Shown one piece after another: positions 961 to 19,292 of a DNA stretch of 64,000 nt (positions within the stretch are counted from its first letter, which is position 1; every line of letters starts with the position of its first letter). The DNA lies in the NCBI GenBank assembly GCA_963692915.1, contig OY843584.1, positions 544,001-608,000 on the forward strand. The letters are read 5' to 3'. The notes below the pieces were generated by a model that worked only from the letters and a program-made list of their open reading frames with translations, had not been told where the DNA came from and made no database searches. This DNA is from Cenarchaeum sp. GTDB taxonomy: Archaea; Thermoproteota; Nitrososphaeria; Nitrososphaerales; Nitrosopumilaceae. A program made the position numbers and the translations under genes.

Positions 961-1692
961 CTAGCCGTACATTCCGCGCTTTAGCACGCCCTCGCCGGAT
1001 TCAGTCTTGGCCTCGCGAATTGCAAGCTCGGCCTTTTCGGCCTCTGCCTGTAGCGTCGCCATGTCGCACGCCGTGCCGGGCACTAGCCGTGACATTGCCG
1101 TGCACAGGAGCGCACCTGCACGATAGTCTGCGCCTTCGTGCGTGGGGTTGAATAGCACCACAATGACGTTCTGGCTGTTGAGTGCGCCATAGTTGAGCAG
1201 CGATCCGGGTATTCCTGTCACCATTCCGGTTTCCATGACCTCCATTGACGCATCTGATATCTTTTTTCGCGCGTCATCCGTGCTGCCTGCTGCCATGATC
1301 TTTCCCTCTGGCATCTGCGTCCCGACTGCAACACTGCTGACTATCCACGAGACCTTGTGATCGCGCGCCCACCTGAGCATCATGCGCGCTATGGGCTTGT
1401 GCTCTGAGGCCGGAAGCGAGAGATATGAGGAAAAGACTGCGACCTTTATCTTGCTGTTGGCAAACACGCGAGTTGGATGAAATGGCCGCGAGTTCTGAAC
1501 CATGCTCACCGGCGGAAACTTGTCCGAGTCAATCGTCGCGACGGGGGTGAACTTCATCGTGTTTATGAGCGATGCCGAGGCGATTGCGCTCGTGTGCCCA
1601 GTTGAGGGAAACCCGTCTATGAGGTAGCCGCCCTCAACGTCTGTGGATTCTAGCTCGTTTATGTGGTACCTTTGGTTCGTGAGCCGCCGCAA
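961..1692 (-). CDS. PAC2 family proteasome assembly chaperone
   Basis: LIDGFPSTGHTSAIA, SDKFPPVS, GMVTGIPGSLL. Confidence 0.8.
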   Translation of the reverse strand: MRRLTNQRYHINELESTDVEGGYLIDGFPSTGHTSAIASASLINTMKFTPVATIDSDKFPPVSMVQNSRPFHPTRVFANSKIKVAVFSSYLSLPASEHKPIARMMLRWARDHKVSWIVSSVAVGTQMPEGKIMAAGSTDDARKKISDASMEVMETGMVTGIPGSLLNYGALNSQNVIVVLFNPTHEGADYRAGALLCTAMSRLVPGTACDMATLQAEAEKAELAIREAKTESGEGVLKRGMYG

Positions 1693-1713
1693 GCGACCAA
1701 CAATAATAGTATT

Positions 1714-2673
1714 TCACCCATCACGGCGACCTTCCATGCGCTCCAGGAGGGCCGCATAGAGAAACGGCAGTGCCACCGTGGCCTCGGCGTGGAGCGTCGC
1801 CTGCCGCGCCCCCTTTGCAACCTTTCCCCACGACACGGCTTCTCTGACCGGTGCGCCGCTCAGACTGCCGTCGTGCTCATCAGCAGTAGTCACGTACAGC
1901 GCATAGTCGAGGCCACCACGGTACTGGTTCCACCATAGCGTGTGGTGCTTTGATATCCCGCCGCCCACCATGAGTGCACCTGACCTCTTTGCGCCAAACA
2001 CTAGCCCTGAGAGCATCTCAGAGTCCCTCACTATGTCGAGCGCAAACTCCGCATGTCCCTGGCAGAACGTCCAGACCTGGCTGCCAACGGCACCGTCCAT
2101 TATTCCTGGCACGATCACGGGTATGCCATTCTTGGCTGCCCAGTGCAGGAACGAGTCCTCGCCCGTGTGCTCACCGATAATCCTGGTCACGTCGGCAGTG
2201 GAGACAGAGCGCGTGCCCGAGTCGTACTCTGCGGCCAGGAACCCTTGCATCTTTTCCTCGATCAGCGTTCCATAGCTTGACGCGGGCACAAGAACGCTGC
2301 CTAGGCGGTGGATGTCCTGGTCTGCGAGCTCCGAGTCATCCATCGTGAACGAGCCGGCGTTATAGTCAGCAAACGAGCGTGCAAGGTCATGGTCCAGCGC
2401 GCCACACGTCGTGATAATGACATCAAACATGCGCCTCTTTGCCATGTCGCGCATGATGCCGCGTAGGCCAGTTGACATTGTCGCGCCCACAAACGAGAGG
2501 AACTTTAGGCATTTGTCGTCTGATTCCATATCATGGAGTATGTCGAGTCCTGCGGCCATGTTTATGGACTCAAATCCGCCCGAGCCGGCCATCTCGGATA
2601 TTATCCCCGCCGGTGACGAGTTGGCGCGTATGCTAATGTCCTTGACGGCATCGCCGAGCTCAACCATGCGCAC
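1714..2673 (-). CDS. dys: Deoxyhypusine synthase
   Basis: IITTCGALDHD, GGGISKHH, DGSLSGAPVREAVSWGK. Confidence 0.95.
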   Translation of the reverse strand: MRMVELGDAVKDISIRANSSPAGIISEMAGSGGFESINMAAGLDILHDMESDDKCLKFLSFVGATMSTGLRGIMRDMAKRRMFDVIITTCGALDHDLARSFADYNAGSFTMDDSELADQDIHRLGSVLVPASSYGTLIEEKMQGFLAAEYDSGTRSVSTADVTRIIGEHTGEDSFLHWAAKNGIPVIVPGIMDGAVGSQVWTFCQGHAEFALDIVRDSEMLSGLVFGAKRSGALMVGGGISKHHTLWWNQYRGGLDYALYVTTADEHDGSLSGAPVREAVSWGKVAKGARQATLHAEATVALPFLYAALLERMEGRRDG

Positions 2674-2940
2674 GCCGCAAAGACGCCGGTAATAAAACCC
2701 TGACTAGGCGTGACGCCTTTGGGGGCACGCGCAGCGGCGCAAAGTCTGAACTTTGGCATGGCAGCTCTGATCGCCACATGGTCATGCGATGTGGCCGATA
2801 CGGCAGACACTCGTTGAGTTGCATGCCCGCGACCCCCTGTTCGCGCACATGCCCTGCTTGGGGCCGATTTGGATCCGGTGCGCACGGTCGTCTTGGAACG
2901 GCACGCGCCTATAACTTAAATTGAGCCTAATGTCCCACCG

Positions 2941-4041
2941 TTGACATTGGCAGACAAGATCAAGGTTGCCCTCGTGGGCATTGGAAACTGCTTTGCGGGT
3001 CTCATACAGGGAATAGAGTACTATCGGCGCAACCCCACGCAAGAGGTTATTGGCATAATCCACGACAAGATCGCCGGCCGCGGAATTCATGACATTGAGT
3101 TTGTGTGCGGCTTTGATGTGGGGGACAACAAGGTCGGCTCGACGATAAACGAAGCCATATACTCCAAGCCAAACATGGTCACCTGGATACCCAGGGATGA
3201 GATGCCCAAGACGAGCGCAACGGTCTACGAGGCACCCGCGCTTGACGGTGTTGGCATATGGGTTCACAACCGCATAAACCCGATCAAGAGCGACACGAGT
3301 GTGGAGGAGCTTGGCGAGACGGCAAGAAAGGTGCTGCGCGAGACGGGAGCTGAGGTTCTCGTGTCATACCTTCCCGTGGGTTCCGAGGAGGCCACAAAGT
3401 TCTGGGCACAGGTGTGCCTTGACACAAAGACGGCGTTTGTCAACTGCATCCCGTCGTTTATCGCGTCAGATGAGACATGGGCGAAAAAGTTTGCTGAGCG
3501 CGGCGTGCCCGTTATCGGTGATGACATCAAGGGGCAGGTTGGCGCAACGATCGTCCATCGCACGCTTGCAAAGCTGTGCAATGACCGCGGAACAAAAATA
3601 GAAAAGACATACCAGATCAACGTGGGGGGAAATACTGACTTTTTGAACATGAAGGAGCAGGATCGGCTTGTGAGCAAAAGGATCTCAAAGACCGAGAGCG
3701 TACAGAGCCAGCTTGATGAGCGGCTGGATGATGACAACATATACGTCGGCCCATCGGACTTTATACCGTTTCTTGGCAACACAAAGCTCATGTTTATGCG
3801 AATAGAGGGCAGACAGTGGGCAAACATCCCGTATAACATGGAGGTTCGGCTCGATGTTGATGACAAGGCCAACTCGGCGGGAATCGTCATCGATGCGATC
3901 CGGCTCGCAAAGCTTGCGCTCGAGCAGGGGATTGGAGGGCCAGTCCATGAGGCGTGCGCATATCTCATGAAGCACCCGCCGCGCCAGATGGGCGACCAGG
4001 ATGCGCGCAGGGCGTGCGACGAGCTAATCTCGGGCGCCTAG
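2941..4041 (+). CDS. ino1: myo-inositol-1-phosphate synthase
   Basis: VGIGNC, IGDDIKGQVGAT, NVGGNTDFLNM, SKTESV. Confidence 0.95.
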   Translation: MTLADKIKVALVGIGNCFAGLIQGIEYYRRNPTQEVIGIIHDKIAGRGIHDIEFVCGFDVGDNKVGSTINEAIYSKPNMVTWIPRDEMPKTSATVYEAPALDGVGIWVHNRINPIKSDTSVEELGETARKVLRETGAEVLVSYLPVGSEEATKFWAQVCLDTKTAFVNCIPSFIASDETWAKKFAERGVPVIGDDIKGQVGATIVHRTLAKLCNDRGTKIEKTYQINVGGNTDFLNMKEQDRLVSKRISKTESVQSQLDERLDDDNIYVGPSDFIPFLGNTKLMFMRIEGRQWANIPYNMEVRLDVDDKANSAGIVIDAIRLAKLALEQGIGGPVHEACAYLMKHPPRQMGDQDARRACDELISGA

Positions 4042-4653
4042 CGCGGCGCGGAGGCTCTCGGAGAGTGACGGCTTGTCTGGCTGCGCAATGACATAGTCGA
4101 GGTCATCGCGCGTGTCGACATCTAGCATTACCCTGCGGACCAGGGCAAGCGTCGTGCGCAGGCCTGCCGCATGGGCAGTCGCGACGTGTATCCTGTGGCT
4201 GTCCTCGTCATAGTGCGTCTCGTGCGCGCATGGCGGCGAGCGCACGAGGGCGTTGGTCCCGTCGAGGCGCCTCGAGGGCACCACGAGGGAGCCGTGCTGC
4301 GGGGCCAGGCGCAGTATGGCGTCAATGTCGCCGGCCTCCACGAGGGGTATGTCCTGGGGGATGACTAGCGATGCCCCATAGTCGCCGGCCACGCCGTCAG
4401 CGAGCGAGACAGCCCCATTGACACCGGCCTCGCGTGGCTCGTCGACGACCTCGGCGCCTGCCCTTGATGCGACAGACGCCGCACGCGCGTCTCCGGTGAC
4501 GACGACTGTTGCTGACACCTGCGAGGAGACGACGGCGTCTAGGACAGATCCGAGCATTGTCTCGCACACTGCCTCGCGTGCCGCACGGCTGGCGTCTAGC
4601 CGGGACTTTGCGCGCGCGAATGACTTTACGGGTATGATTGCCACGGCGTCCAT
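4024..4653 (-). CDS. cofC: 2-phospho-L-lactate guanylyltransferase (F420 biosynthesis)
   Basis: IIPVKSFARAKSRL, DGTNAL, LDVDTRDDL; adjacent to cofD. Confidence 0.92.
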   Translation of the reverse strand: MDAVAIIPVKSFARAKSRLDASRAAREAVCETMLGSVLDAVVSSQVSATVVVTGDARAASVASRAGAEVVDEPREAGVNGAVSLADGVAGDYGASLVIPQDIPLVEAGDIDAILRLAPQHGSLVVPSRRLDGTNALVRSPPCAHETHYDEDSHRIHVATAHAAGLRTTLALVRRVMLDVDTRDDLDYVIAQPDKPSLSESLRAALGARD

Positions 4654-6917: not shown

Positions 6918-7200
6918 GTGCGTGCCAGGAGTAACCCTCCTTCTGTTCTGGCGACATTTGGCTATGCGGCCTACCCGAGCCTGCTGCAGGGTGCTGGGGC
7001 TCTGTCTGGCCTTGCTCCGCGCGGGACAGCCGTTCCATTCCGGCTCCGGAAACCTCAGGCACAGCCGTCACGGTGCGCCGGGCCGGATTCGTTTCTGTTC
7101 TGTTGCCGGCCATCTCTGGCCACCCATCTCCGGGTCGCGCTCCCTGCGTGGAGGGAGGAGTTTCCTCTGCGTTAGCAGCGTGTCGCTCTCTGGCTCGCAC
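6918..7200 (-). ncRNA. rnpB: RNase P RNA
   Basis: Minus strand has GAGGAAACTCC (7167-7157) and AACAGAAGGAGGGTTA (6947-6932) P4 signatures; termini GTGCGAGCCAG/CTGGCACGCAC form P1. Confidence 0.93.
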
Positions 7201-7264
7201 GCCCAAGGCCTGCACGAGGGGGCGTATATCGCTATCTCTGCACGCTAGAGCGTATTCTGTACTT

Positions 7265-7442
7265 TCAAATACTTAACAGTTGAGGGACGATGTACGATCA
7301 AATACTTAACAGTTGAGGGACGATGTACGATCAAATACTTAACAGTTGAGGGACGATGTACGATCAAATACTTAACAGTTGAGGGACGATGTACGATCAA
7401 ATACTTAACAGTTGAGGGACGATGTACGATCAAATACTTAAC
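7265..7442. repeat. Exact 33-bp tandem repeat, about 5.4 copies
   Basis: Unit TCAAATACTTAACAGTTGAGGGACGATGTACGA, no spacers. Confidence 0.97.
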
Positions 7443-7518: not shown

Positions 7519-9045
7519 ATGACTGACATGAGCGCCGGACCCTGGACACCACAGTTGCTGCGAGACGTGAATCCGTGGTGGGAGCTGCCAGACGTGATAC
7601 GGCAGGATCGTGAGGTTAGGGCATGGCGTGATTCAGGTGAGCGCTATCGGCCTGCGCTCATGGGCGAGATGACGCTTGACTTTGAGTCTGATATGCAGGT
7701 GATCTACACGGTTCGAGGATCGCGCCAGGTGGGCAAGACGACAATGGTAAAGCTGCAGATCATGGATCTCCTGGATCAGGGGGTGGAACCGCAACGTTTG
7801 CTCTACTATTCGTTTGGCCCGCGTGCAACGCTTGACGAACTGTACGATGTCCTGCTGGGATACCTGCGCCTGAGCGAACGTGTCCGCGGTGATCGTAGAT
7901 GCTACATATTTCTCGATGAAATATCATATGTGCCAAAATGGCAAGAGGGACTAAAGGAGATCTCCAACATGGGACGCCTGGCAAATTGCACCATCGTGGC
8001 AACCGGCTCAAATGCCACTGACTTGACACGCGCAACTGAGACGCTTACGGGTCGTCTGGGGCTTGTTGAGGATGGAAACCACAAATCACTCCTTCCAATG
8101 CGCTTTAGGGAGTTTGTGTCAATTATGAACACCGATTTGTCTAAACTTATCACCTCTCACGGCCTCTCTGAGCATGATCGGGCGCATTCTGTGTTTATGG
8201 ACATCGCCACTGGATCCAATAATGAAGTTCTGAATCGGCTAGAGCTCCATATGACCGACCTGGATGTGCTTTTCATGCAATACATGGTGTGGGGTGGAAT
8301 ACCACATGTGGCAAACATGTGTCCCAATGGCATACCAAATCCGCTGTACAGGACATACTTGGATGGCATATTGCATGAATGGAAATTTCTTGGATACTCG
8401 ATTGATTCACTACGCGGCCTTGCGCCACATCTCGTGGATAGTGCGGGAAGCACTTTTTCGTGGAACAGCATGGCAGATGCGCTCTTGTGCTCCCGTCAGG
8501 AGTCCAAAGACCGCCTATGCGCGCTGCGTGACATGTATGTGATCTCGGTTATGGATAACTATAACGTGCATGGCAAGATTGCGCACCACCGCAAGTCCAA
8601 AAAGCTGCACTTTCGAGATCCGCTCTTTTACCACATCTTTGCCACGTTGTCTGGCAAACGCTCCTCTCCGTTTGAGCAGAGCAAGGCATGCGTGGACGAT
8701 CCCACTATTCGTGGCAAGGTGGCCGAGTGTGTGATGGCCGATCACCTCTCTCGCTTTGCCTACTCTGCATCGGTTCGAAAAGCGCTCTTTGATCCGTCCG
8801 ATTATGTTTACTATTGGAAGTCGGGGAGACACGAGGTGGACTTTGTGTATATTGGAAGCGATAACATCCCAATTCCAATTGAGGTAAAGTATCGCTCCAA
8901 GATCAACCACAAAAACTTTGACGGCATGGCAGAGTTTCTAAACGTTAGCGGCGCGGGGCGTGGAATTGTTGCCACACGACGAGAGTATGACATTCGGCGC
9001 GACTATGCGCTTGTTCCGCTGCCGATGCTGCTAATGCTGATGTGA
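7519..9045 (+). CDS. AAA_14/DUF4143-type ATPase with C-terminal PD-(D/E)xK-like domain
   Basis: NPWW, Walker A GSRQVGKTT, Walker B IFLDEI, TGS, LTGR, KLHFRDP, EVDFV...PIEVK. Confidence 0.88.
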   Translation: MTDMSAGPWTPQLLRDVNPWWELPDVIRQDREVRAWRDSGERYRPALMGEMTLDFESDMQVIYTVRGSRQVGKTTMVKLQIMDLLDQGVEPQRLLYYSFGPRATLDELYDVLLGYLRLSERVRGDRRCYIFLDEISYVPKWQEGLKEISNMGRLANCTIVATGSNATDLTRATETLTGRLGLVEDGNHKSLLPMRFREFVSIMNTDLSKLITSHGLSEHDRAHSVFMDIATGSNNEVLNRLELHMTDLDVLFMQYMVWGGIPHVANMCPNGIPNPLYRTYLDGILHEWKFLGYSIDSLRGLAPHLVDSAGSTFSWNSMADALLCSRQESKDRLCALRDMYVISVMDNYNVHGKIAHHRKSKKLHFRDPLFYHIFATLSGKRSSPFEQSKACVDDPTIRGKVAECVMADHLSRFAYSASVRKALFDPSDYVYYWKSGRHEVDFVYIGSDNIPIPIEVKYRSKINHKNFDGMAEFLNVSGAGRGIVATRREYDIRRDYALVPLPMLLMLM

Positions 9046-9699: not shown

Positions 9700-10310
9700 C
9701 GCGACCGAAACACAAATGGATCGGCTCGCGGGCAGGCAACGCGTTGGCCGGCGAAGCGGATGCAAAGTACGTTGACAGGGGAAGGATACTCGTCATGCCC
9801 GCCAGCACGGAGGTCGCGCGGCGCGAGCTCGCCGAGGCGAGCAGGAAAAAGCCCGGCAGACCGTTCCTCTGCCCGAAGTCGCTCGTCATCCAGCTCGCCC
9901 TGGTGCGCGCCCTGTTCGGCGTCTGCCACAGGGAGCTGGAGGAGCTCCTCGCCGAGTCCCTGCACGGCGAGTTTGGTATCGGGTTCGTCCAGATATGGCG
10001 CAGGGTGTCGGGGTCGACGTCGGGTTCTCATCGCGCGACGGCTTGTTCACGTTCAACAACTCGCTCACCAGCGACGCCGGGGAAACCGAGGTCGCGTTTG
10101 ACGGCACGGCCTCAGGTAGGGAGGAGCGGCGCGTGGAAGCTGGAGAAGTGGAAGGTTCGTTTCGGCTTCGTCAGGCTCACGCTGGCAGTCCACGCCGAGG
10201 ACAAGATGATCATCGCCATGACGGTGACGGGCGACGCGACGTCGAAACTCTCGCAGTTCCCAAAGCTGCTGCGCGCGGTGGTGGACGCGCGCGCAGTTCG
10301 TCAGGACGCG
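9700..10310 (+). mobile_element. Degenerate IS5-family transposase remnant
   Basis: KPGRPFLCP, IWRRV, frameshifted AFDGT, GAWKLEKWKVRFGFVRLTLAV...IIAMTVT; C-terminal DDE part missing. Confidence 0.7.
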
Positions 10311-11022
10311 TGGCAGCCATCGTCGAGGAGCTGGGCAAACAACGCGAGGTACAGCAGGCAGCATCAGAAAAATATCGACGATCATGTCGACGCCCGAGTT
10401 TGTCGAACGCTCTAAACATCTTGAGGCGCTTGAAAAGTTAGGTGCCGAACGAACCGCACTTGATCTGGAGATAGGCGGATCATTTACAAGGATAAGCCAT
10501 CCACTCTCAAAGTACGTCTATGTCACTTCACTTGACAAAGAAAAAAAAACCGTAATGGCCAGGATGCTTGCCGAGCCGGCGGTTGCCCTGCGCGAGTCCG
10601 GCCCTGACATTGTGCTTGACATACTTGTTCACGTCAGAAAGGCAGTCTCATCAGCATCCGTCTCCGTAAAGGACATATCGAAATCCGAGGAACAGATAGA
10701 CGCAGTGTCTGCCGGTCTTGGGGAGTTTGTCTCGCGCATGGCGTCACTGGAGGAGCGCAAGGGCGAGATTGCCGAGCGCGTTCGCTCCTTTGACTCCTCG
10801 CAGCTTGACTCTGCGCGCGCAACGCTCGAGCGAGCCACGTCTGACATTGTGGCACTAGAGTCGCGCGAGCGCGAGATTCGGGCCGATGCCGTGGCCGCCG
10901 AGGCCGAGATTCCCTCGGCCCTCAAGGCGCTAGAGTCGCGCATGCGAGCCGTGACGTCAGTCGCGTACACCTTCGGATGCCTGACGCCTAGCAATCGGGT
11001 TTTGCAGGATGGCCAGATCTAG
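10310..11022 (+). pseudogene. 5'-truncated coiled-coil protein gene
   Basis: Coiled-coil ORF abutting the IS remnant; apparent frameshift in an A-run near 10370. Confidence 0.55.
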
Positions 11023-11281
11023 TAGTGTCACACTTTGCCGTACGGGCGCTGCTGTGACGGCATTAGCAGGCGTCATGGCGGTAGCCGTCAACATCCGCTC
11101 TAAATATCTCATGCCGTGATCATGTTTTGTCATTATACCCCCTAACTTTTTGTGATTTTGGGCGTTTTTCACACTTTTTCAAGGGGTATTTGATCACTGT
11201 TCAAAAACCAAATGATTTTACCTTTCTTTATATACTCATTTGGCATTTCTTTATAAAGAGATAGTGGCCTGACTGGCACGG

Positions 11282-13135
11282 TTGACCCAGCACAAGATTG
11301 ACGTAACACCGGACAAGAGCCTCATCAAGAAGCTGGGGAGTGTAGGGTACCGAACCGAGCAGGCCATAGCAGAACTGATTGACAACTCTATCGACGCCCG
11401 CCTAGACGGTACGCTAGAGACGATCAGGATAGTCTTGGACTTTGCGAATCGAACGATTTCTGTCCGTGACGACGGCGCCGGAATGGATCTGGGTGCACTC
11501 AGGAACTCGTGGGTGCTTGGAGCACACTCAAAGTCATCAAACTCGAGCCTTGGCATGTTTGGAATTGGCATGAAGAGCGCATGCTCAGCCCTGGGCAAGT
11601 CGTTTTCGGTCAGGACAACAACTGCGGGTTCCACGGCTGAACTTTACGCAAAATATGATGAAGATGAGTGGCTTGGAAGTTCAGGAGGGTGGGATGACTT
11701 TGAGGTTACTGAAACCCCCGCTGATGCAGATACGCACGGAACAGAAGTCGTCGTGTCAAAGATCAATGTCGCGCTTTATCGTGCACAGGCTGCACAATTT
11801 CGAAAGCGCTTTGGAACACGCTATGCCCAGCATATGTTGGATCAACAAATAAAGATCACTGTCAACAACAAGCCATGCAGACCAATTGAGCCAGATATTG
11901 ACTATAAAACCAAAAAAAACCTTGACATTTCCCTGTCTGATGGTAATCGCATCCATGGGTGGATTGCGCTTTTACGTCAATATTCAGTCAAGGGCGATTA
12001 TGGGTTTAACCTGTATCAAAACAGTAGACTAATCAGCTCTCACGCCAAATTTGGAATTCGTTACCATCCGGCAGTATCTCGTGTGGTTGGAAATCTGCAT
12101 TTGGATCATGTCCCAGTAAATGTTCTTAAAACCGGGTTTTTGCCTGACACATACGAATATGCACAATCTTTTAAAGCAATTGAGAACGATCCGACTGTCA
12201 AAAAACTCATCAATGAGTCTGAACCTCATGAAAAATTTAGTAGTGACTATGCCTCTGTTTTCAGAAATGATGTGCCACCGACAAAAATTCCACGTATTGG
12301 AGATGTGAACGCCTCTCGTTTGCTTCGCAATATGATCTCTGTGGATGTACTTGACACTGCGTCTCCTCGTATGGCGCTGGAGGATTGTGACACTGGGGTG
12401 TACCGCATTGAAGGTAGTGGCGACGAAACAAAAGTCATTGTTAATCGACAAAGTGCCGTGTTTCGGGCATTTAAAAATCCGCTGTTTTTGTTGGGAATGT
12501 TGCGTCTTGAAGCTCAAACTCTATCCGGTCATTCTGAAGCACAGCGTCTAATCACAAAAAGAAACAAAACATGGGAACAGTTTGTGGATTCACACTCTAT
12601 TAATCGTGATATCAAACGTATAGGATCCAATGACACATTGCCCAATAATCTTGTGAAGCTGCGTAGTTCAATTATGGGAGAGTTTTCAGAGCGGTTCCAG
12701 TTTACGGCTCTATCGATCTTGTGGCCACATCTCATTAACGCATATCGTATATTGCCCTACACAGTATATGTTGCGCGAGGTTACGGCCAACTGTTAAAAC
12801 ATGTTGTATCGCAACAGAGTGGTTATCACGCAATTTTAAATCCTGACCCTGGACAGGTGCATCAAATACTGGAAGCACGAGATGGCGGGGCACTCGTGAT
12901 AATACGTGAGCGATCTGATGTGCCCAAGTTAACTGCTGCATCGTATGCCAAAGCTTGGGTTGATCTATTTGTCGAGATACGACACGAACGTGTTGGAGTT
13001 TATGAAGAAGAGCTTGAGATGCTGTGGGATCTTGAGGACCACAGCTTGCTTACTATGAACCAAGTACTTTCATATGCGAAACGCCGCAGTGTTGCACAAG
13101 AGGTGGCTAAATACACTGGGGATGACACCACGTGA
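11282..13135 (+). CDS. MORC-type GHKL ATPase with putative C-terminal AbiEi-like domain
   Basis: ELIDNSIDA, DDGAGM, LGMFGIGMKSA, GTEVVV; S5-like GFNLYQNSRLI/VVGNLHLD; tail AASYAKAWVDL...VLSYAKRRS. Confidence 0.85.
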   Translation: MTQHKIDVTPDKSLIKKLGSVGYRTEQAIAELIDNSIDARLDGTLETIRIVLDFANRTISVRDDGAGMDLGALRNSWVLGAHSKSSNSSLGMFGIGMKSACSALGKSFSVRTTTAGSTAELYAKYDEDEWLGSSGGWDDFEVTETPADADTHGTEVVVSKINVALYRAQAAQFRKRFGTRYAQHMLDQQIKITVNNKPCRPIEPDIDYKTKKNLDISLSDGNRIHGWIALLRQYSVKGDYGFNLYQNSRLISSHAKFGIRYHPAVSRVVGNLHLDHVPVNVLKTGFLPDTYEYAQSFKAIENDPTVKKLINESEPHEKFSSDYASVFRNDVPPTKIPRIGDVNASRLLRNMISVDVLDTASPRMALEDCDTGVYRIEGSGDETKVIVNRQSAVFRAFKNPLFLLGMLRLEAQTLSGHSEAQRLITKRNKTWEQFVDSHSINRDIKRIGSNDTLPNNLVKLRSSIMGEFSERFQFTALSILWPHLINAYRILPYTVYVARGYGQLLKHVVSQQSGYHAILNPDPGQVHQILEARDGGALVIIRERSDVPKLTAASYAKAWVDLFVEIRHERVGVYEEELEMLWDLEDHSLLTMNQVLSYAKRRSVAQEVAKYTGDDTT

Positions 13136-14220
13136 TTGTTGATGGTCTAACTAGACGTGATCTCAAGTCAAGAACTACTAAATTTGGTTTTGCTGACTCG
13201 GGCTATCTTGAAAAGTTTATGATGGATTTTGATGCCTACATTGCACTATCTAATGTGAGAAAATGTTATGTTCGTGGAGGCATGTGTGTGCCTTTTTATG
13301 TTGATTCTAAACATCGCCGTTTCAGTAAAGATCTAGATGTATATGTGACTTGTTCAGTTGACGAGATCATCGAAAAAGTTTCTGCTGCATTGTTGGATGT
13401 GGGATTTACGCGTGTTACGCCCTATAATCATCGTGGCAATCAGTCTATGATGAATAACTGGGTTCGTTTTAAGGCTTCCTATGTTCCCGTGGGCTCTTCG
13501 GATCATCCATCTGCTTCTAGTCAACAAGATTCAATATCTGTTGATATCACATGTGGGATTGATGCTGCTCAGCTTGACACTACTCTCCTAGAACAAGAGC
13601 AAAATTTATTTGACTTTAAAATACCGCCTCCAATTCACACACTTTCTAGAGGGGCGCTTATCGCAGACAAAATTACTTCACTGGGGTGTGGGCCTGTGGG
13701 ATATCCTACGCCTGCAGGACGTTCTAAGCCTTTGGGATATTCTGAGCCTGAACCTACGCCAAAGCAGATCTATGATATTGGCATGCTGCTGCGCAAAACA
13801 ACAACCGATGATCTTATTATTATGGTACAGATGTACAATTATTTAACAAATTTTAAATTAACAAACGGAAATCGCAATTTTGGACTAGCGAAAGTAATTC
13901 AAAGCGTTAAATCATATATTTCTACCATTTTAACAAATGACACCTTACCTCGGCTGACCAGCGCACACAGCGATCATTTTTTCATTTTTTCTCACAGTAT
14001 GCTTTCAAAACCCCATATTGACGAAGTTGAACATTCAAAAAATATCATGTTGACTTTACTCTGTGCAGACTTTCTTGAACGTTCTCTTGATGCCTCTGCC
14101 TCAAATGAACAATTGGCTGAACGTATGCAAGATACACTCGATGCTGCATTTGAACTTGAAATACTTGAAGACCAGATATCGTATTTAAAGCGACATGTTG
14201 AGGGTATGGGCTCACCTTGA
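13132..14220 (+). CDS. AbiEii/AbiGii-family nucleotidyltransferase toxin
   Basis: LEK, VRGGMC, RRFSKDLDV, LIADKITSL, KQIYDI; 4-nt overlap with the upstream gene. Confidence 0.85.
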   Translation: MIVDGLTRRDLKSRTTKFGFADSGYLEKFMMDFDAYIALSNVRKCYVRGGMCVPFYVDSKHRRFSKDLDVYVTCSVDEIIEKVSAALLDVGFTRVTPYNHRGNQSMMNNWVRFKASYVPVGSSDHPSASSQQDSISVDITCGIDAAQLDTTLLEQEQNLFDFKIPPPIHTLSRGALIADKITSLGCGPVGYPTPAGRSKPLGYSEPEPTPKQIYDIGMLLRKTTTDDLIIMVQMYNYLTNFKLTNGNRNFGLAKVIQSVKSYISTILTNDTLPRLTSAHSDHFFIFSHSMLSKPHIDEVEHSKNIMLTLLCADFLERSLDASASNEQLAERMQDTLDAAFELEILEDQISYLKRHVEGMGSP

Positions 14221-14443
14221 CAATTTTGCCACATCGGACATCTTACCGCTGTGGTGGGCGTGTCCTGTCTCGAACATTTTCACGCATGCCGTTTCTTGCA
14301 AACGTGCGGAGTCTGGCGGCCATGTTTTCTGGATCCTGCTAGATTGACATGGTGCCCTGCCGCCTGTCGACTCCAATACTGACGCGTGGTCATGGCACAT
14401 CGCCATGAGTGCAGTTAAATCCAGCCACGTGTGCCTGCTGCGC

Positions 14444-15271
14444 ATGAACCTCGTGGCCTCTGGCAAGGTAAAGGACGTCTATGACGCCGGTGACGGCCTC
14501 TTGAGATTTCACTTTAGTGACCGTGTCTCGGCATATGACGTAAAGTTTGTCGAGCCGATCCCAAAAAAGGGTGAAATTCTCTGCAAGTTTGCCGAGTTTT
14601 GGTTTGGCGAGCTTGGGGTGCCTAGCCACTTTGTTCGGCGTGTCTCGGACACTGACATGCTCGTTAGGCGAATGAAGATGCTGCCGATCGAGTGTGTCGC
14701 ACGGGGGTATCTGTATGGCAGCCTCTATGACCGTCATCTGCGTGGCGAGTCAGGACTCCGGCTTGATGACGAACGCCACGCGGCCAGGCTGCCTGAGGCA
14801 ATATTTGACCCAACCACAAAGGCCGAGCACGACGAGCCTGTGACGCGCGACTCGGCAATCCGTATGGGCCTTGTGAGCGCCGCTCAATATGACTCCCTAG
14901 AGTCAATGACGCTAAAGATATACGGCCAGATGGCATCAGTGGCAGAGCGTGCGGGATTTGTCATGGCTGACCTAAAGCTGGAGTTTGGCATGCTTGGTGG
15001 GAAGATTGTCCTGGGCGACTCTATTGGGCCAGACGAGTTTCGGATGTGGCCATCAGAGTCATACGAGCCCGGACGCGTGCAGGACGCATATGACAAGCAG
15101 ATACTGCGCGACTGGCTGGCCGCCGGCGGTCACAAGGACAGATTTGAGCGCGAACGCGCCGCCGGAGAGGCGCCACGGCCGCCGATGATACCGTCAGAGA
15201 TTATCGGCACAATGACGGGGCGCTATGTTGACGCCTATGAGCGCATAACGGGCAGGCCGCTAGACGCATAG
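14444..15271 (+). CDS. purC: SAICAR synthetase
   Basis: [31 protein letters not shown]. Confidence 0.95.
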
Positions 15272-15530
15272 CCTAGCGCCATGGGCCATTGTTGGGTTCT
15301 CAGAATGCCAATCTGCCGTGATGCTTCCATGCGGGGGCTAGATTGCGTGCCTTTCTTGCCTGTATTCATGCGTGCATAGGGAGATCCTGGCAGTTCGTGA
15401 CCTCATATTGGCTGTGTGAGCATGCCGACTATGCGTAAAGACTCTAATCGTACTCCCAGGCGCGCCGGCGCTGATGCCCATTGTGCCTCAACGTGCCGCC
15501 GGAGCGCCGCCACAGTGGCGATCCGGTTAT

Positions 15531-15725
15531 TTCCAATATCCATTGTATCATTTCATAACAAATCATATTATTATGATATATATCATTAGTCTTAATTCTA
15601 ATGTTAGCATTATAAGATATTTCCTATTACAACTATATGTATCGTATAATAGGGATATTATTCAGTTTCCTATTATCAATATCATTCAAATGAATAATAG
15701 TGCTCTAATTCTAATAAGTGTAAAC
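15531..15725. other. Extremely AT-rich intergenic patch
   Basis: Hand count about 23% GC over 15531-15720 against GC-rich flanks. Confidence 0.9.
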
Positions 15726-15791
15726 TAGACTCTATGCGAGCGGTCAAAAAATGCTGATCTTTCCCACTTTTGGCCTGGTGGGACGCACGGG

Positions 15792-16319
15792 ATGCCGATG
15801 GAGACACTGGTAGACCGCCCTGTCAGCGTGACGAGGACTATAGCGTCGAGTCCTGATGAGGCAAGCGCGATAGCGGATCCCGTGAGGGCAGCCATAGTCG
15901 CGCTCCTCTATCGCCGGACGCTGACGGCCGAGCAGATATTCGAGCGTCTAGGCAGGCGTGGCAAGAAAAAGGCGCTCACGACGGTGCGCCACCACATCGA
16001 CGTCCTCCGCTCCGCCGGCCTAGTGGACATTGTGAAGGTCGTAGAGTCTCGAGGAGGAGTGACAAAGCACTATGGAACCTCCACGAGGCTCCTCATGCAG
16101 AACCCCCAGGATGATTTTGACGAGCAGCACTCGGATGCCATTGCAGCTGCAACCGTTGGCCTTGCGGCCGTCATAGAGTCAGCAGGCGCGAACATTGCGC
16201 CAAAGGATGGCAAAAAACGCGTTGATCCGGCGCACAGACACTATGTCGTCGCCGAGATACTAAACCGCGCAATGACTGCGGCCATGGAGCGTGGCTCGCG
16301 CGCACCGTCAGGGTCATAG
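15792..16319 (+). CDS. ArsR-like winged-helix transcriptional regulator
   Basis: AIADPVRAAIVALL, TTVRHHIDVLRSAGLV, KHY. Confidence 0.88.
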   Translation: MPMETLVDRPVSVTRTIASSPDEASAIADPVRAAIVALLYRRTLTAEQIFERLGRRGKKKALTTVRHHIDVLRSAGLVDIVKVVESRGGVTKHYGTSTRLLMQNPQDDFDEQHSDAIAAATVGLAAVIESAGANIAPKDGKKRVDPAHRHYVVAEILNRAMTAAMERGSRAPSGS

Positions 16320-16423
16320 CCTGCTGACATGGCCGGAGGCGTGCCCAGTCGGCGATTATGGGCACGGGAACCCCTCTTGCGCCTGTCTGGTGGGCGCATG
16401 TGCTGTATGGGGCGCATTTGGCA

Positions 16424-16449
16424 TATTTCTAAACTCGAGTTTAGAAATA
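16424..16449. repeat. Perfect 26-bp palindrome (copy 1)
   Basis: TATTTCTAAACTCGAGTTTAGAAATA. Confidence 0.95.
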
Positions 16450-16497
16450 CATAATTTGTGACCATGCGCGCCTCGCAGACTCGTGTATGTGCCCCAT

Positions 16498-16745
16498 GGC
16501 CATGTTACGCACAAGAGCTAAACCCCCCTGTGGGGGGAGCCGGTTCACGAGGGAGTCCATTTTTCTGAAAATGGCCGATCTGGAGGGGGGTTGAGCACCC
16601 ACGCCTAGATCGGACAGACAACGCTCAAACCATGGGGCTAGCTGTCCTGCGGGTGCCCCGTTGTGCAATGTCATGCCTAAAAGCTAAACCCCGTGATCTT
16701 TGCCGTTCAGGTGGTGGCTCGGTCCACAGATCTTCGCGCATGGCC
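16498..16745. ncRNA. Putative structured non-coding RNA
   Basis: Complementary ends (GGCCATG/CATGGCC plus extension), several internal hairpins, no convincing ORF. Confidence 0.35.
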
Positions 16746-16903
16746 GGCTGACGTGTGTCAGACGCGCCAGGATGGGCATAAATGACGCATGAGCCCACCC
16801 CCCGCACCCATGCTGCGCGCCGCCGCACAATCATGCTGGCGCTGTTGTGGCACATGTGGCCAGGCGCAGTCTCGCGCTGGGCTGCCATGTGCGATATTGT
16901 GTA

Positions 16904-16925
16904 TTTCTAAACTCGAGTTTAGAAA
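16904..16925. repeat. Perfect 22-bp palindrome (copy 2)
   Basis: TTTCTAAACTCGAGTTTAGAAA. Confidence 0.95.
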
Positions 16926-16928
16926 ACC

Positions 16929-17174
16929 CTATGTGGCCGCACTGCGGACTCTTTCTTGCGTTATGGCAATCTCGACGGCCTCTAGGGGGCTTGCCTCCTC
17001 GTTGCGCCGTATGGAGAACATCTTTGGCCGCTCAAAGTCGCGCGTGCAGTCAGGGCACGCATAGACTAGAACGCGGTGCTCATTTGGCGCCTTTGGGTTT
17101 GAGAGGCGAGGATAGTACACGAGACGCGCACCACAATCCACACAGTACCTGTTAACCCTGCGCGTCCTGGCCAT
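16929..17174 (-). CDS. Small zinc-ribbon protein
   Basis: CVDC...CPDC, 81 aa from ATG 17174. Confidence 0.75.
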   Translation of the reverse strand: MARTRRVNRYCVDCGARLVYYPRLSNPKAPNEHRVLVYACPDCTRDFERPKMFSIRRNEEASPLEAVEIAITQERVRSAAT

Positions 17175-17290
17175 GCAAACCTCCTGCGTGGAGTATTGGC
17201 GATGGTGCATATTAGATCGGCATAGTCTAACAGAGTCGACCAAATGGTTCCCTCTGGGGCATGTGGGGGCGCGCACGGAACCCTGTGTGG

Positions 17291-17367
17291 TGGCGCCGCC
17301 CGACAGACTTGAACTGTCGACCAACGGATTAACAGTCCGTTGCTCTACCACGCTGAGCTAGGGCGGC
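17291..17367 (-). tRNA. tRNA-Asn(GTT), CCA encoded
   Basis: GCCGCCCTAGCTCAGCGTGGTAGAGCAACGGACTGTTAATCCGTTGGTCGACAGTTCAAGTCTGTCGGGCGGCGCCA cloverleaf. Confidence 0.97.
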
Positions 17368-17438
17368 AGCGCGCCGCCTTTGGAATGTTGCGATTTAACC
17401 CTTGCGTGCCCTGTGGGCGTGGGGCGCAGGCGGGCACC

Positions 17439-17587
17439 TGTCTGGTGCCCCATGGCCATCATGTCTGGTGCCCCATGGCCATCATGTCTGGTGCCCCATG
17501 GCCATCATGTCTGGTGCCCCATGGCCATCATGTCTGGTGCCCCATGGCCATCATGTCTGGTGCCCCATGGCCATCATGTCTGGTGCC
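17439..17587. repeat. Exact 23-bp tandem repeat, about 6.5 copies
   Basis: Unit TGTCTGGTGCCCCATGGCCATCA. Confidence 0.97.
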
Positions 17588-17657
17588 TGCAGGTGCGCAT
17601 ATCGGCGGGCCACAGAGTCGGGCCGTGCGCCCTGATGGGCAGGACATTGGCCTGCCG

Positions 17658-18212
17658 CTAGGACTCTATGCCGCGTTTCTTGTCGTACGTGTAGATGCCG
17701 TCAAGAAAGACCCTGTGGTCCTTTTTCTTTATGCGGGTGTTTTGCTGTATGTTGGCTGCCGTCTGCGTCACGTCGGTGAGCACGGGGCCTGTGAGGACCA
17801 CGTCATCGCCCTTTACGGTGACCTTTGTGTCCCCGACGATGCGCGCGCGGCGCGGCGCGTGCTCGCCCTGAAAGTTCTCCACCAGGACCATCCCAGAGTC
17901 AACCTTTACGGAGACCGGAAAGTGCGCATAGACGACCTTCATCTTTAGGGTATAGCCCTCCCTGATTCCATCGACCAGGTTTCGCACCAGGGAGCGTGAG
18001 GTGTTTAGTATGGCATAGTCGCGCTTTTTGGAGTCTCGTGCGCTCAGGTTTATGGTCCCCTCGCCGATCTCGACGTCGACGGGTATCTTTCTAAAGTTCT
18101 TGTACGTGTGGCCAAGCGGTCCCTCGACACGCATGACTCCGCGCCTCATGCTGATTGTGACGCCCTCTGGCACGTCGACTGTTGTCTTTAGGCGGTCAGG
18201 ACTAGTACGCAT
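17658..18212 (-). CDS. rpl6: 50S ribosomal protein L6
   Basis: VYAHFP, NFQGE, DHRVFLDGIY. Confidence 0.95.
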   Translation of the reverse strand: MRTSPDRLKTTVDVPEGVTISMRRGVMRVEGPLGHTYKNFRKIPVDVEIGEGTINLSARDSKKRDYAILNTSRSLVRNLVDGIREGYTLKMKVVYAHFPVSVKVDSGMVLVENFQGEHAPRRARIVGDTKVTVKGDDVVLTGPVLTDVTQTAANIQQNTRIKKKDHRVFLDGIYTYDKKRGIES

Positions 18213-18600
18213 AGCCCACCAAAAACCCCCCAATTCCCATCTTTGTCGCGTCGTGGTGCGACATGACGCCGTGGTTTGTCGTCACGACTAGTATACCGCG
18301 GTCATACGATGGCAGGTAGCGCTGCTCCCAGAACGCATACTCGTCCTTTTTGACCTTGAAGCGAGGTGATATTGCGCCACACTTTGTTATCTTTGCGACA
18401 AGGCCAACGCGGAACTTGCCCCCGCGGCCATCCTCAATCCTCTCATACTCGCCGACATAGCCGTCCTTTTGGAGCGTCTTGAGAACCTCCGCACACAGTC
18501 CGGACGTGGGAAACACGGTGCACTCGGCCTTGCGTCGTGCCTCTGTGTTGTATAGTGTTACGAACATGTTTGCTAGTACGTTAGTGGCCGGCATCATCAA
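18202..18600 (-). CDS. rps8: 30S ribosomal protein S8
   Basis: DGRGGKF, CGAISPRF, TTNHGVMSH. Confidence 0.95.
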   Translation of the reverse strand: MMMPATNVLANMFVTLYNTEARRKAECTVFPTSGLCAEVLKTLQKDGYVGEYERIEDGRGGKFRVGLVAKITKCGAISPRFKVKKDEYAFWEQRYLPSYDRGILVVTTNHGVMSHHDATKMGIGGFLVGYAY

Positions 18601-18777
18601 TCACATGTATTTCCTGAATCCCAGAGAGCCGGCGACCTCCCTAAAGCACCTGCGGCATATCATAAGATCGTACTTTTGAATGACTGCGGTATAGTCGCCG
18701 CACCTCTTGCACCAGCGCGAACCGCGCCCAAAAGAGTGCTCCTTGCGGCCGGTAAACTCGTACGAGCGATCCTTCAT
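18601..18777 (-). CDS. rps14: 30S ribosomal protein S14 (not in ORF track)
   Basis: Translated by hand: MKDRSYEFTGRKEHSFGRGSRWCKRCG...ICRRCFREVAGSLGFRKYM. Confidence 0.95.
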   Translation of the reverse strand: MKDRSYEFTGRKEHSFGRGSRWCKRCGDYTAVIQKYDLMICRRCFREVAGSLGFRKYM

Positions 18778-19292
18778 GCTACTGCCACCCCAAACCTGTC
18801 AGTCACAAACGAGCGCGCCTCGTCAGCCGTTATAATGTGTGCGCCTCCAACGCTGGCCTTGTGCTTGCTCCTGCGGCTGATCGAGTTGCCTGGACGCGCA
18901 AGCGAGACGCAGACGTCAAGGCCGAGTATGCCCACCTTTGGGTCGTATTTCACGCCGGGCACGTCAATGTGCTCCTTTATCCCAAACGAAAAGTTGCCGT
19001 GGCCATCAAACGCCCTGCTGCGCACGCTGTTGTCGCGCGCCTCAAGAAGGCGCTTTAGGAGGGTTGTGGCATCCTCGCCGCGCACGGTCACTGCCACCCC
19101 GATGGGCTCACCCTTGCGCACGCCAAAGTCACGGTATGTCTTTTTTGCGTCGCGTGCACACGGTCTCTTGCCCGATATGTGCGCAAGGGCGGCCTTTGCG
19201 GCCTCGATTGCGTCGCCTGACTTGCCGATTCCCATGTTGAGGACGACCTTTTCGAGGTATATCACCTTCATTGGGTTGTCGCCTTCGCTCAC
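18774..19292 (-). CDS. rpl5: 50S ribosomal protein L5
   Basis: NPM..LEKVVLNMG, FGVRKGEPIG, GNFSFGIKEHID. Confidence 0.95.
   Translation of the reverse strand: MSEGDNPMKVIYLEKVVLNMGIGKSGDAIEAAKAALAHISGKRPCARDAKKTYRDFGVRKGEPIGVAVTVRGEDATTLLKRLLEARDNSVRSRAFDGHGNFSFGIKEHIDVPGVKYDPKVGILGLDVCVSLARPGNSISRRSKHKASVGGAHIITADEARSFVTDRFGVAVA

Follow-up and report, generated by a model that had tools for sequence, protein, structure and literature searches.

Gene organization of the locus

The window analysed here is a stretch of 64,000 nucleotides (nt) that covers positions 544,001-608,000 of the complete, single-contig 1.64-Mb genome of Cenarchaeum sp. (contig OY843584.1). It contains a pair of overlapping genes that we examine as a candidate toxin-antitoxin module with an unusual first gene. 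Gene 1 encodes a MORC-like GHKL-S5 ATPase fused to a tail of the DUF6577 family, and gene 2 encodes a nucleotidyltransferase of the AbiEii/DUF1814 family. The features of the pair are listed in Table 1.

Table 1. Features of the gene pair, with positions in the window, strand and evidence (aa, amino acids; ORF, open reading frame; AF2, AlphaFold2).
Feature	Position	Strand	Evidence
Gene 1: MORC-like GHKL-S5 ATPase fused to DUF6577 antitoxin-type tail	11282..13135	+	ORF, 617 aa, TTG start; Pfam; homologues; AF2
GHKL (Bergerat) ATP-binding domain, ~residues 1-165	11282..11776	+	HATPase_c_3 over residues 23-123; invariant columns; MORC4 PDB match
S5-fold transducer domain, ~residues 166-300	11777..12181	+	MORC motif G241-I251; invariant G241, R249, K283; Foldseek MORC matches
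Middle region, mostly helical, poorly conserved, ~residues 301-449	12182..12628	+	AF2 secondary structure, pLDDT 53-88
DUF6577 tail, residues 450-617 (168 aa), presumed toxin-neutralising domain	12629..13132	+	AF2 tail model; DUF6577; hhalign; Foldseek
Gene 2: AbiEii/DUF1814-family nucleotidyltransferase, presumed toxin	13132..14220	+	ORF, 362 aa, GTG start; Pfam; PADLOC; invariant residues
GTGA, gene 2 start codon over gene 1 stop codon	13132..13135	+	Read from sequence (13129-13138 = acG TGA ttg)
Candidate archaeal TATA box TTTATAAA	11251..11258	+	By eye in sequence; 24-31 nt 5' of gene 1 TTG start

The original prediction, made from the window alone, described a low-GC two-gene unit with a GTGA stop/start overlap, and this description holds. 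In 1-kb windows, the GC content is 0.41-0.48 over positions 11001-14500 and 0.58-0.63 on the flanks. The GTGA overlap suggests translational coupling of the two genes. The candidate TATA box TTTATAAA would possibly fit a leaderless or near-leaderless transcript of gene 1, judging by its distance from the start codon.

The pair stands alone between housekeeping-type genes. A sister genome carries the same gene pair in the same place, with proteins that are 94% (gene 1) and 85% (gene 2) identical and the same dip in GC. The DNA of the two genomes is collinear at ~93% identity over window positions 10274-19162, and upstream of position 10274 they differ. Since the pair and the GC dip are found at the same site in both genomes, the islet predates the split of the two species.

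Gene 1 has a MORC-like ATPase part

The assignment of the N-terminal part of gene 1 rests on sequence families, conserved residues and predicted structure. Pfam places HATPase_c_3 on gene 1 with an E-value of 3.3e-17 (63 bits, cut-off 25). The GHKL boxes are complete, with E31 and N35 in the N box, D63-x-G-x-G67 as the G1 box and G94-x-G96 as the G2 box. An alignment of 42 full-length gene 1 homologues showed that the Bergerat residues E31, N35, D38, D63, G67, G94 and G96 are invariant, as are G241, R249 and K283 in the S5 domain, and that the N-terminal strap from T9 to G19 is conserved at 90% or more. Complete GHKL boxes and an S5-like domain had been predicted, and the alignment supports both. 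Morc6_S5 scores below its 26.2-bit cut-off on gene 1 itself (E 0.035, 14.6 bits) and above it in the homologue P0078 (26.6 bits). Residues 241-251, G-F-N-L-Y-Q-N-S-R-L-I, match the S5 signature GhXhhpXXRhl, which is a mark of MORC proteins (Iyer, Abhiman and Aravind 2008, PMC2292703; this and the other papers cited by PMC number are cited for the sections drawn on here).

In the AF2 model of gene 1 (mean pLDDT 81, pTM 0.50), the GHKL and S5 domains are followed by a helical middle, which is predicted weakly, and by an alpha/beta domain that stands apart at the C-terminus. The middle region includes two long helices (400-438) and a small element of three strands, and its mean pairwise identity is 29%, compared to 55% for the GHKL domain. 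The best PDB match by sequence was human MORC4 (7k7t_A, E 6.1e-9). Foldseek searches with the model found MORC4 (7k7t_B, target-normalised TM 0.58, root-mean-square deviation (rmsd) 5.7 Å over 367 columns), MORC2 (9cdj_B, TM 0.50) and SMCHD1 (6mw7_C, TM 0.44), with rmsd values of 5.7-7.8 Å for the three. The lowest E-values for the full model belonged to Hsp90/TRAP1 chains (4e-16), yet these aligned at an rmsd of 15-19 Å and a TM of 0.32-0.37. Because of the low-rmsd MORC and SMCHD1 matches, in contrast to those of Hsp90, we call the N-terminal 300 residues MORC-like and not Hsp90-like. Membership of gene 1 in the Hsp90/HtpG family was rejected on these alignments and on an NCBIfam HtpG E-value of 0.073.

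The tail of gene 1 is related to a domain in the antitoxin position

When folded alone by AF2 with 49 sequences, the tail gave a model with a pLDDT of 92.4 and a pTM of 0.89. DUF6577 (PF20217) was found in 28 of the 49 tails at E<=1, the best at 5.1e-10, and on full-length gene 1 homologues it scores 19-30 bits around its cut-off of 27.8 bits. A search of 1.84 billion representative proteins with the tail profile returned 239 proteins at E<=0.001. Among the best 150 of these 239, 26 (counted by hand) are 619-676 aa long with the domain at the C-terminal end, and most of the others are 220-310 aa long with the domain after residue 60-130. In an hhalign comparison, the tail matched 51 small proteins that combine a winged helix-turn-helix (wHTH) with DUF6577 at a probability of 99.93% (E 5.9e-36, 162 columns), and the match begins after their wHTH. 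The profile comparison thus makes a solid case for homology between the tail and the post-wHTH DUF6577 domain of small proteins encoded beside AbiEii genes.

Ten of the short proteins found with the tail profile were scanned. DUF6577 was present at E<=0.01 in seven, the AbiEi_4 wHTH in three (P0165, 25.2 bits with a cut-off of 25; P0180, 21.9; P0174, 16.7) and a TrmB wHTH in two. Three had no Pfam match (P0121, P0128 and P0136) and P0123 had a weak DUF6577 match; these four, which score as high as the fusions, may be fusion fragments. Small proteins are also found at three genome loci of the phylum, where AbiEi_4 scores 28.3 bits (cut-off 25) at L069 and 15.1 bits at L070, and L075 has DUF6577 only. 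At two of the three, an AbiEii gene directly follows the small protein according to Pfam (L069, E 3.4e-12, with a 4-nt overlap; L075, E 4.8e-9).

The same arrangement was seen in metagenomic loci. Eighty loci were taken with the small-protein alignment, 57 of them with at least 900 nt downstream. A downstream match was defined as an ORF that matches the hidden Markov model (HMM) of the gene 2 family and has its start between -200 and +400 nt relative to the end of the small-protein match. An AbiEii-like ORF lies directly downstream of the small wHTH-DUF6577 protein in 56 of the 57 loci. These 56 should not be read as independent cases, as some contigs are perhaps near-duplicates from related samples. 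The 23 loci with less downstream room comprised 7 with a match and 16 without. This adjacency indicates that DUF6577 is a domain in the antitoxin position for the AbiEii subfamily to which gene 2 belongs.

Gene 1 itself has no wHTH or HTH family at E<=0.1 in Pfam, and its residues 1-300 are taken up by the GHKL and S5 domains. The source genome has no AbiEi_1 match at E<=1e-5, and its DUF6577 matches lie only inside two of three GHKL fusion genes. These searches agree with the earlier claim that there is neither an N-terminal wHTH nor a separate antitoxin gene. Look-alikes of the tail in the ESM Atlas (DUF6551, 0.90; an "AbiGii toxin" cluster, 0.89) had low shared-feature counts and were dropped as chance-level matches.

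Gene 2 is an AbiEii nucleotidyltransferase

Gene 2 matches Pfam AbiEii (PF08843) with an E-value of 1.6e-8 (35.2 bits, cut-off 22.5) and the PADLOC AbiEii model with an E-value of 1e-6. It had no NCBIfam match, and the PDB search by sequence gave two chance-level matches only (E 0.38 and 0.98). In an alignment of 37 sequences, which takes in the partners of two small DUF6577 proteins, residues G49, G50, R63, S65, D67, D69, K180, K211, D215 and F286 are invariant. Four AbiEii motif groups are therefore kept in all 37 sequences: GG, R-x-S-x-D-x-D, D-K and K-x-x-x-D. The GG, RxSxDxD, K and YD motifs of AbiEii had already been noted in gene 2.

The closest functional comparison is to TglT/MenT3, in which R76, the phospho-acceptor S78 and D82 lie in an R-x-S-K-D-x-D stretch and toxicity requires G62, D82, K189 and D208 (PMC7205606). 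The spacing of R63-x-S65-x-D67-x-D69 in gene 2 equals that of R76, S78 and D82 in TglT, which puts Ser65 at the phospho-acceptor position. Regarding the original prediction of a serine that the antitoxin phosphorylates, the serine stands, being invariant, and for the agent of phosphorylation the sources differ. The antitoxin was presented as a kinase of the toxin in 2020 (PMC7205606), whereas a later account has MenA antitoxins induce auto-phosphorylation of the toxin (PMC11375011). MenT1 and MenT3 are known to be neutralised by phosphorylation (PMC11375011), and MenT toxins modify tRNA acceptor stems (PMC7450476, PMC10435456). By analogy, we infer that gene 2 is a growth-arresting tRNA nucleotidyltransferase.

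Conservation, decay and spread of the pair

At least 449 gene 1 homologues were present among 7999 candidates scored, nearly all of them ~620 aa long with 97-100% coverage. With one genome surveyed per species, 60 loci were obtained, nearly all of them from Nitrosopumilaceae, Cenarchaeum or Nitrosopumilus; one each is labelled Nitrososphaera and Dehalococcoidia, and one partial locus is labelled Woesearchaeota. They hold 59 gene-1-like ORFs, of which 8 are partial, 1 is without downstream room and 50 are full-length with at least 1.1 kb downstream. A script classified these 50 as intact-adjacent (33), fragment or split (5) and none (12). Three were reassigned by hand: L029, where gene 2 is intact (HMM E 8.8e-121), and L011 and L028, where tblastn finds short remnants of it (E 1e-9 and 4e-4). 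An intact gene 2 therefore adjoins gene 1 at 34 of the 50 loci, and an eroded or split one is found at 7. In many of the intact pairs, the two genes overlap or are only a few nucleotides apart (-8 to +7 nt). The same two-gene synteny was expected to occur elsewhere, and its recurrence in many genomes is far beyond chance.

Where the pair decays, the toxin gene goes first, being eroded or split while gene 1 is intact. At L012 (8242-9486) and L055 (8513-9760), an insertion with an ORF of 414 or 415 aa interrupts the toxin gene, and the ATPase gene is intact. The ORF inserted at L055 matches the transposase family DDE_Tnp_1 (E 7.8e-7), and the one at L012 is without a Pfam match. At loci without gene 2, the next genes are unrelated and include, for example, a methyltransferase and an AAA_13 ATPase. 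Two loci, L049 and L052, have two gene 1 copies within 14 kb, the upstream copy with a toxin gene and the second without, which suggests tandem duplication or repeated insertion.

The gene 1 family appears from these sequence searches to be nearly confined to Nitrosopumilaceae. In a sample of the Nitrosopumilaceae, matches at E<=1e-30 were present in 21 of 151 genomes and in 8 of 27 genera, with at most five copies in a genome, and all four other genomes of the source genus carry the family. A complete pair also occurs on a 46-kb contig labelled Dehalococcoidia bacterium (L023), which is either a cross-domain transfer or a binning error. IMG/VR viral contigs yielded no full-length gene 1 relative; the only matches were other GHKL proteins within query residues 1-331, and none of the 66 loci had a tail or gene 2 homologue. 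This result is neutral as to a defence role.

The source genome has three full-length copies of gene 1: the window copy, a second that has an AbiEii partner of its own and a third that lacks such a partner. The second pair adjoins a histidyl-tRNA synthetase gene. The third copy (L007, G000:C1:431000-441000) lies tail-to-tail with a gene for a 1492-aa Big_5 surface-type protein, near a cysteinyl-tRNA synthetase gene. A 504-aa ORF downstream of this copy (3048-4562, minus strand) was rejected as a toxin partner, as it has no Pfam match and overlaps the Big_5 gene on the opposite strand. The genome also encodes a fourth, distinct GHKL (HATPase_c_3) protein of 587 aa (L004, G000:C1:844352-847768, ORFs 53-1501 and 1495-3258). 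The end of a ResIII/DEAD helicase gene overlaps with this gene, and such a neighbourhood is the classical one of the MORC/paraMORC type.

No third gene family is common to the 115 nearest neighbour ORFs of 42 loci. These ORFs include TPR proteins (4), IS66 transposases (4) and IS110 transposases (2). The 25 PADLOC families listed among them include a CBASS cyclase, CARF, PDC-M05A and mad2. The module is not reliably embedded in defence islands. The low-GC islet, patchy spread, multiple copies and varied neighbours, including transposases, point to a two-gene module that is mobile.

The divergence of gene 2 was also compared to that of four gene 1 segments, and all four correlated with it (Spearman 0.64-0.76). 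There was no tail-specific co-divergence, since the values were 0.72-0.76 for the tail and middle region and 0.64-0.71 for the GHKL and S5 domains. Correlation across all segments suggests shared inheritance of both genes and nothing more.

A proposed MORC-gated antitoxin and its alternatives

We consider it probable that the pair is a two-gene module of the AbiE/MenAT type in which a MORC ATPase gates the antitoxin. This reading builds on the domain composition, the conservation of catalytic residues in both enzymes, the homology of the tail to an antitoxin-position domain and the conserved adjacency. From these we infer that gene 2 is toxic, that gene 1 neutralises it and that the pair has a role in defence. 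Gene 2, by analogy with MenT, would add nucleotides to tRNA acceptor ends and so stop translation. Gene 1 would be the antitoxin, in which the wHTH was replaced by a MORC-type GHKL-S5 ATPase of ~450 aa together with a helical linker, and of which DUF6577 alone was retained at the C-terminus. The tail could hold the toxin off by binding it or by promoting phosphorylation of Ser65, as MenA3/TakA does for MenT3/TglT. The ATPase cycle, with ATP-driven N-terminal dimerisation that possibly takes place on DNA, would set whether the tail can neutralise the toxin. Foreign DNA, energy collapse or another such trigger would then set the toxin free, with growth arrest or abortive infection as the outcome.

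A more specific version, close to the original prediction, is that the MORC-type ATP-driven dimerising clamp is the infection or DNA sensor of a new archaeal abortive-infection system and releases a tRNA-modifying toxin upon foreign DNA or ATP collapse, the fused antitoxin domain holding this toxin off for as long as the clamp cycles normally. We regard this as conceivable, though doubtful. The antiviral role is the weakest link, which keeps the selfish-module and activator explanations discussed below alive.

Several observations count against a gated antitoxin. Full-length gene 1 is kept without any gene 2 at 9 of the 50 loci, and in the source genome the third copy has a full-length ATPase gene and no adjacent toxin. 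The protein P0068, which is 38% identical, encoded on the same contig and taken as this third copy, keeps the invariant catalytic residues. Such toxin-less copies with intact catalytic residues suggest that gene 1 may have a job of its own. The neighbours of the pair are heterogeneous and sporadically defence-related, each listed PADLOC family being matched by 1 of the 115. The tail of the window's own gene 1 is weak on DUF6577 (E 0.17, 12 bits).

The remaining objections concern the likeness of the tail to AbiEi. In an hhalign comparison to seven AbiEi_1 (PF09407) domains from the same phylum, the probability was 5.0% for the tail and 1.2% for the small DUF6577 proteins. No AbiEi Pfam family matches the tail, no PADLOC AbiEi model matches gene 1, a PDB search with the tail sequence profile gave no match at E<=10, and a Foldseek search with the tail model gave no PDB fold match at E<=0.001. 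On the other side, both hhalign alignments place the E-K/R-x-x-V/L-D-L stretch of DUF6577 on the invariant E-K-T-I-V-D-x-L of AbiEi_1, so that a local motif E-[KR]-x-x-[VL]-D-L is common to the two families. Among the Foldseek matches of the tail, the AbiEi of S. agalactiae (6y8q_A) ranked highest by probability (0.82) and by TM (0.49/0.44) and came second by E-value (0.13), and Rv2827c (1zel_A), a COG5340 antitoxin (PMC7450476), was found at a query-normalised TM of 0.40. The modelled fold is thus suggestive of AbiEi. The predicted resemblance to the AbiEi C-terminal domain therefore survives in part. Architecture, position and a hint of fold make the tail AbiEi-like, and it is without significant sequence similarity to canonical AbiEi. 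A predicted co-fold of gene 2 and the tail (score 0.00, mark 0.32) gave no answer and is used neither for nor against binding.

One alternative is that the pair is purely selfish, an addiction module that plays no part against viruses, in which the ATPase replaces the wHTH as the DNA-binding, autoregulatory part. The wHTH of canonical AbiEi serves autorepression (PMC7205606), and MORC ATPases are DNA-associated (PMC2292703). The isolated position of the pair between housekeeping-type genes, which is shared with the ~93%-identical sister genome, and neighbours that are mostly not defence genes also fit such a module. However, a 450-aa ATPase with all catalytic residues conserved is a costly stand-in for a 60-aa wHTH. 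AbiE and other toxin-antitoxin systems confer phage resistance. AbiE is also among the validated archaeal defence systems (PMC12988326). A selfish role without defence is unlikely, while still deserving attention.

Another possible explanation is that the MORC ATPase senses a signal and the tail recruits or activates the nucleotidyltransferase, with gene 2 harmless alone. Many defence systems couple an NTPase sensor with an effector, and full-length gene 1 persists at the nine loci without gene 2. Against this, the tail homologues sit in the classical antitoxin position, fused to a wHTH and upstream of AbiEii, in 56 of the 57 metagenomic loci with enough downstream room, and the erosion or splitting of gene 2 with gene 1 intact is the usual decay of a toxin that is harmful alone. 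The co-divergence of the tail and middle region with gene 2 is as for any interacting pair, but it extends to the GHKL and S5 parts and hence reflects shared descent. We find an activator of this kind quite unlikely.

GHKL folds include protein kinases, such as histidine kinases and those of the SpoIIAB type. The GHKL domain of gene 1 could in principle be a protein kinase with Ser65 of the toxin as its direct substrate and the tail as its docking domain. The invariant R63-x-S65-x-D67-x-D69, matching the TglT phospho-acceptor motif, and the neutralisation of MenT1 and MenT3 by phosphorylation (PMC11375011) are in line with this. However, gene 1 has an S5 domain in which a Lys is invariant and the MORC signature is present, and the proteins closest to it in structure are ATPases (MORC, SMCHD1 and Hsp90) and not kinases. 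As MenAT toxins self-phosphorylate (PMC11375011), a separate kinase is also unneeded. A direct kinase is thus improbable. Finally, the pair could be an RNA-modifying enzyme of the housekeeping kind and an Hsp90-like protein that serves it as chaperone or regulator, with no role in conflict. The Hsp90/TRAP1 E-values and the many cellular roles of nucleotidyltransferases (PMC11375011) are in line with this, but it is hardly credible given the poor Hsp90 and HtpG matches, patchy spread, several paralogues per genome, deviant GC and eroded or interrupted toxin genes.

If gene 1 is a MORC-antitoxin fusion, the pair would matter for MORC and toxin-antitoxin biology as well as for ecology. MORC ATPases act in eukaryotic genome defence. 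To our knowledge, their prokaryotic relatives are known only from gene-neighbourhood predictions around restriction-like genes. The fusion would give a simple two-gene read-out, growth arrest or rescue, of prokaryotic MORC sensing and of the coupling between the ATP cycle and an output. It would also mean that an AbiEi-type antitoxin can trade its regulatory head for a switch that consumes energy. Nitrosopumilaceae are abundant nitrifiers, and with the family in 21 of 151 genomes, often in 2-5 copies, the module may be among their commoner conflict modules. Should the clamp-sensor proposal be true, the pair would represent a new defence system of archaea, largely restricted to ammonia oxidisers that are marine or sponge-associated, and the first functional link of MORC ATPases to a translation-targeting toxin.

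Other features of the window

An archaeal RNase P RNA gene lies at 6920-7198 on the minus strand (Rfam RF00373, 192 bits, full length). It adjoins a tandem repeat at 7258-7442, with a 33-nt unit in 5.6 copies at 98% match. At 7519-9045 on the plus strand, a gene encodes a 508-aa AAA_14 + DUF4143 ATPase that resembles the PADLOC candidate single-gene system PDC-S01 (E 6.1e-32). It falls outside the stretch that is collinear with the sister genome, which begins at 10274. A second tandem repeat, at 17439-17587 (23-nt unit, 6.5 copies, 100% match), adjoins a tRNA-Asn gene at 17291-17367 on the minus strand.

Comparison with known systems

The conserved pairing of a MORC-antitoxin with AbiEii seems to be undescribed. 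Apart from the N-terminal similarity to MzaB, no PADLOC or NCBIfam system model fits the pair, and no description of a MORC/GHKL-AbiEii architecture was found in the literature, where the supplement of PMC2292703 and the tables of archaeal surveys could contain the pairing. These searches favour the original claim that the pair belongs to no named system. The words "nucleotidyltransferase" and "toxin" are absent from the main text of PMC2292703, and "AbiE" is absent from the 2026 Tiamat/GHL preprint. The 2026 archaeal defence survey, in the sections on AbiE, treats this system through AbiEii only (PMC12988326), and the portion of a sponge-Thaumarchaeota paper that deals with AbiE-family domains reports them in symbionts only.

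AbiE is similar to the pair in several respects. Gene 2 belongs to the same Pfam family and has its four motif groups, the antitoxin gene comes first and overlaps the second, and the domain of the tail elsewhere follows an AbiEi_4 wHTH and precedes AbiEii. In contrast to AbiEi, gene 1 has a MORC-type ATPase at its N-terminus in place of the wHTH, its tail is not recognisable as AbiEi_1 by sequence, and the PADLOC AbiEi models do not match gene 1.

The likeness to MenAT3 (TglT-TakA) lies in the serine of gene 2 at the S78 position of the R-x-S-K-D-x-D motif. The antitoxins of MenAT3 and MenAT4 are of the COG5340/AbiEi type, and the antitoxin of MenAT2, which is much larger than its toxin, is a precedent for a large antitoxin (PMC7450476). 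However, the antitoxins named for MenAT are not described as ATPase fusions in the sections drawn on here. The tRNA target and the phosphorylation step of gene 2 are assumed from the MenAT analogy.

MzaB of the MZA system resembles gene 1 in the N-terminal GHKL part, ~residues 14-156 (NCBIfam E 2.2e-12, PADLOC E 7.8e-9), whereas the remainder of gene 1 and the partner genes are unlike. Membership of gene 1 in MzaB was rejected, as it scores 46.1 bits with a cut-off of 850 and residues 15-156 alone match.

Gene 1 shares its GHKL and S5 domains and the S5 signature with the prokaryotic MORC/paraMORC proteins, in keeping with human MORC4 as its best PDB sequence match. Those proteins adjoin genes of the restriction-modification (R-M) kind, such as helicases, nucleases and methylases, in the neighbourhoods described in PMC2292703. 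Gene 1 has no such conserved R-M-like neighbourhood; in contrast, its conserved neighbour is AbiEii.

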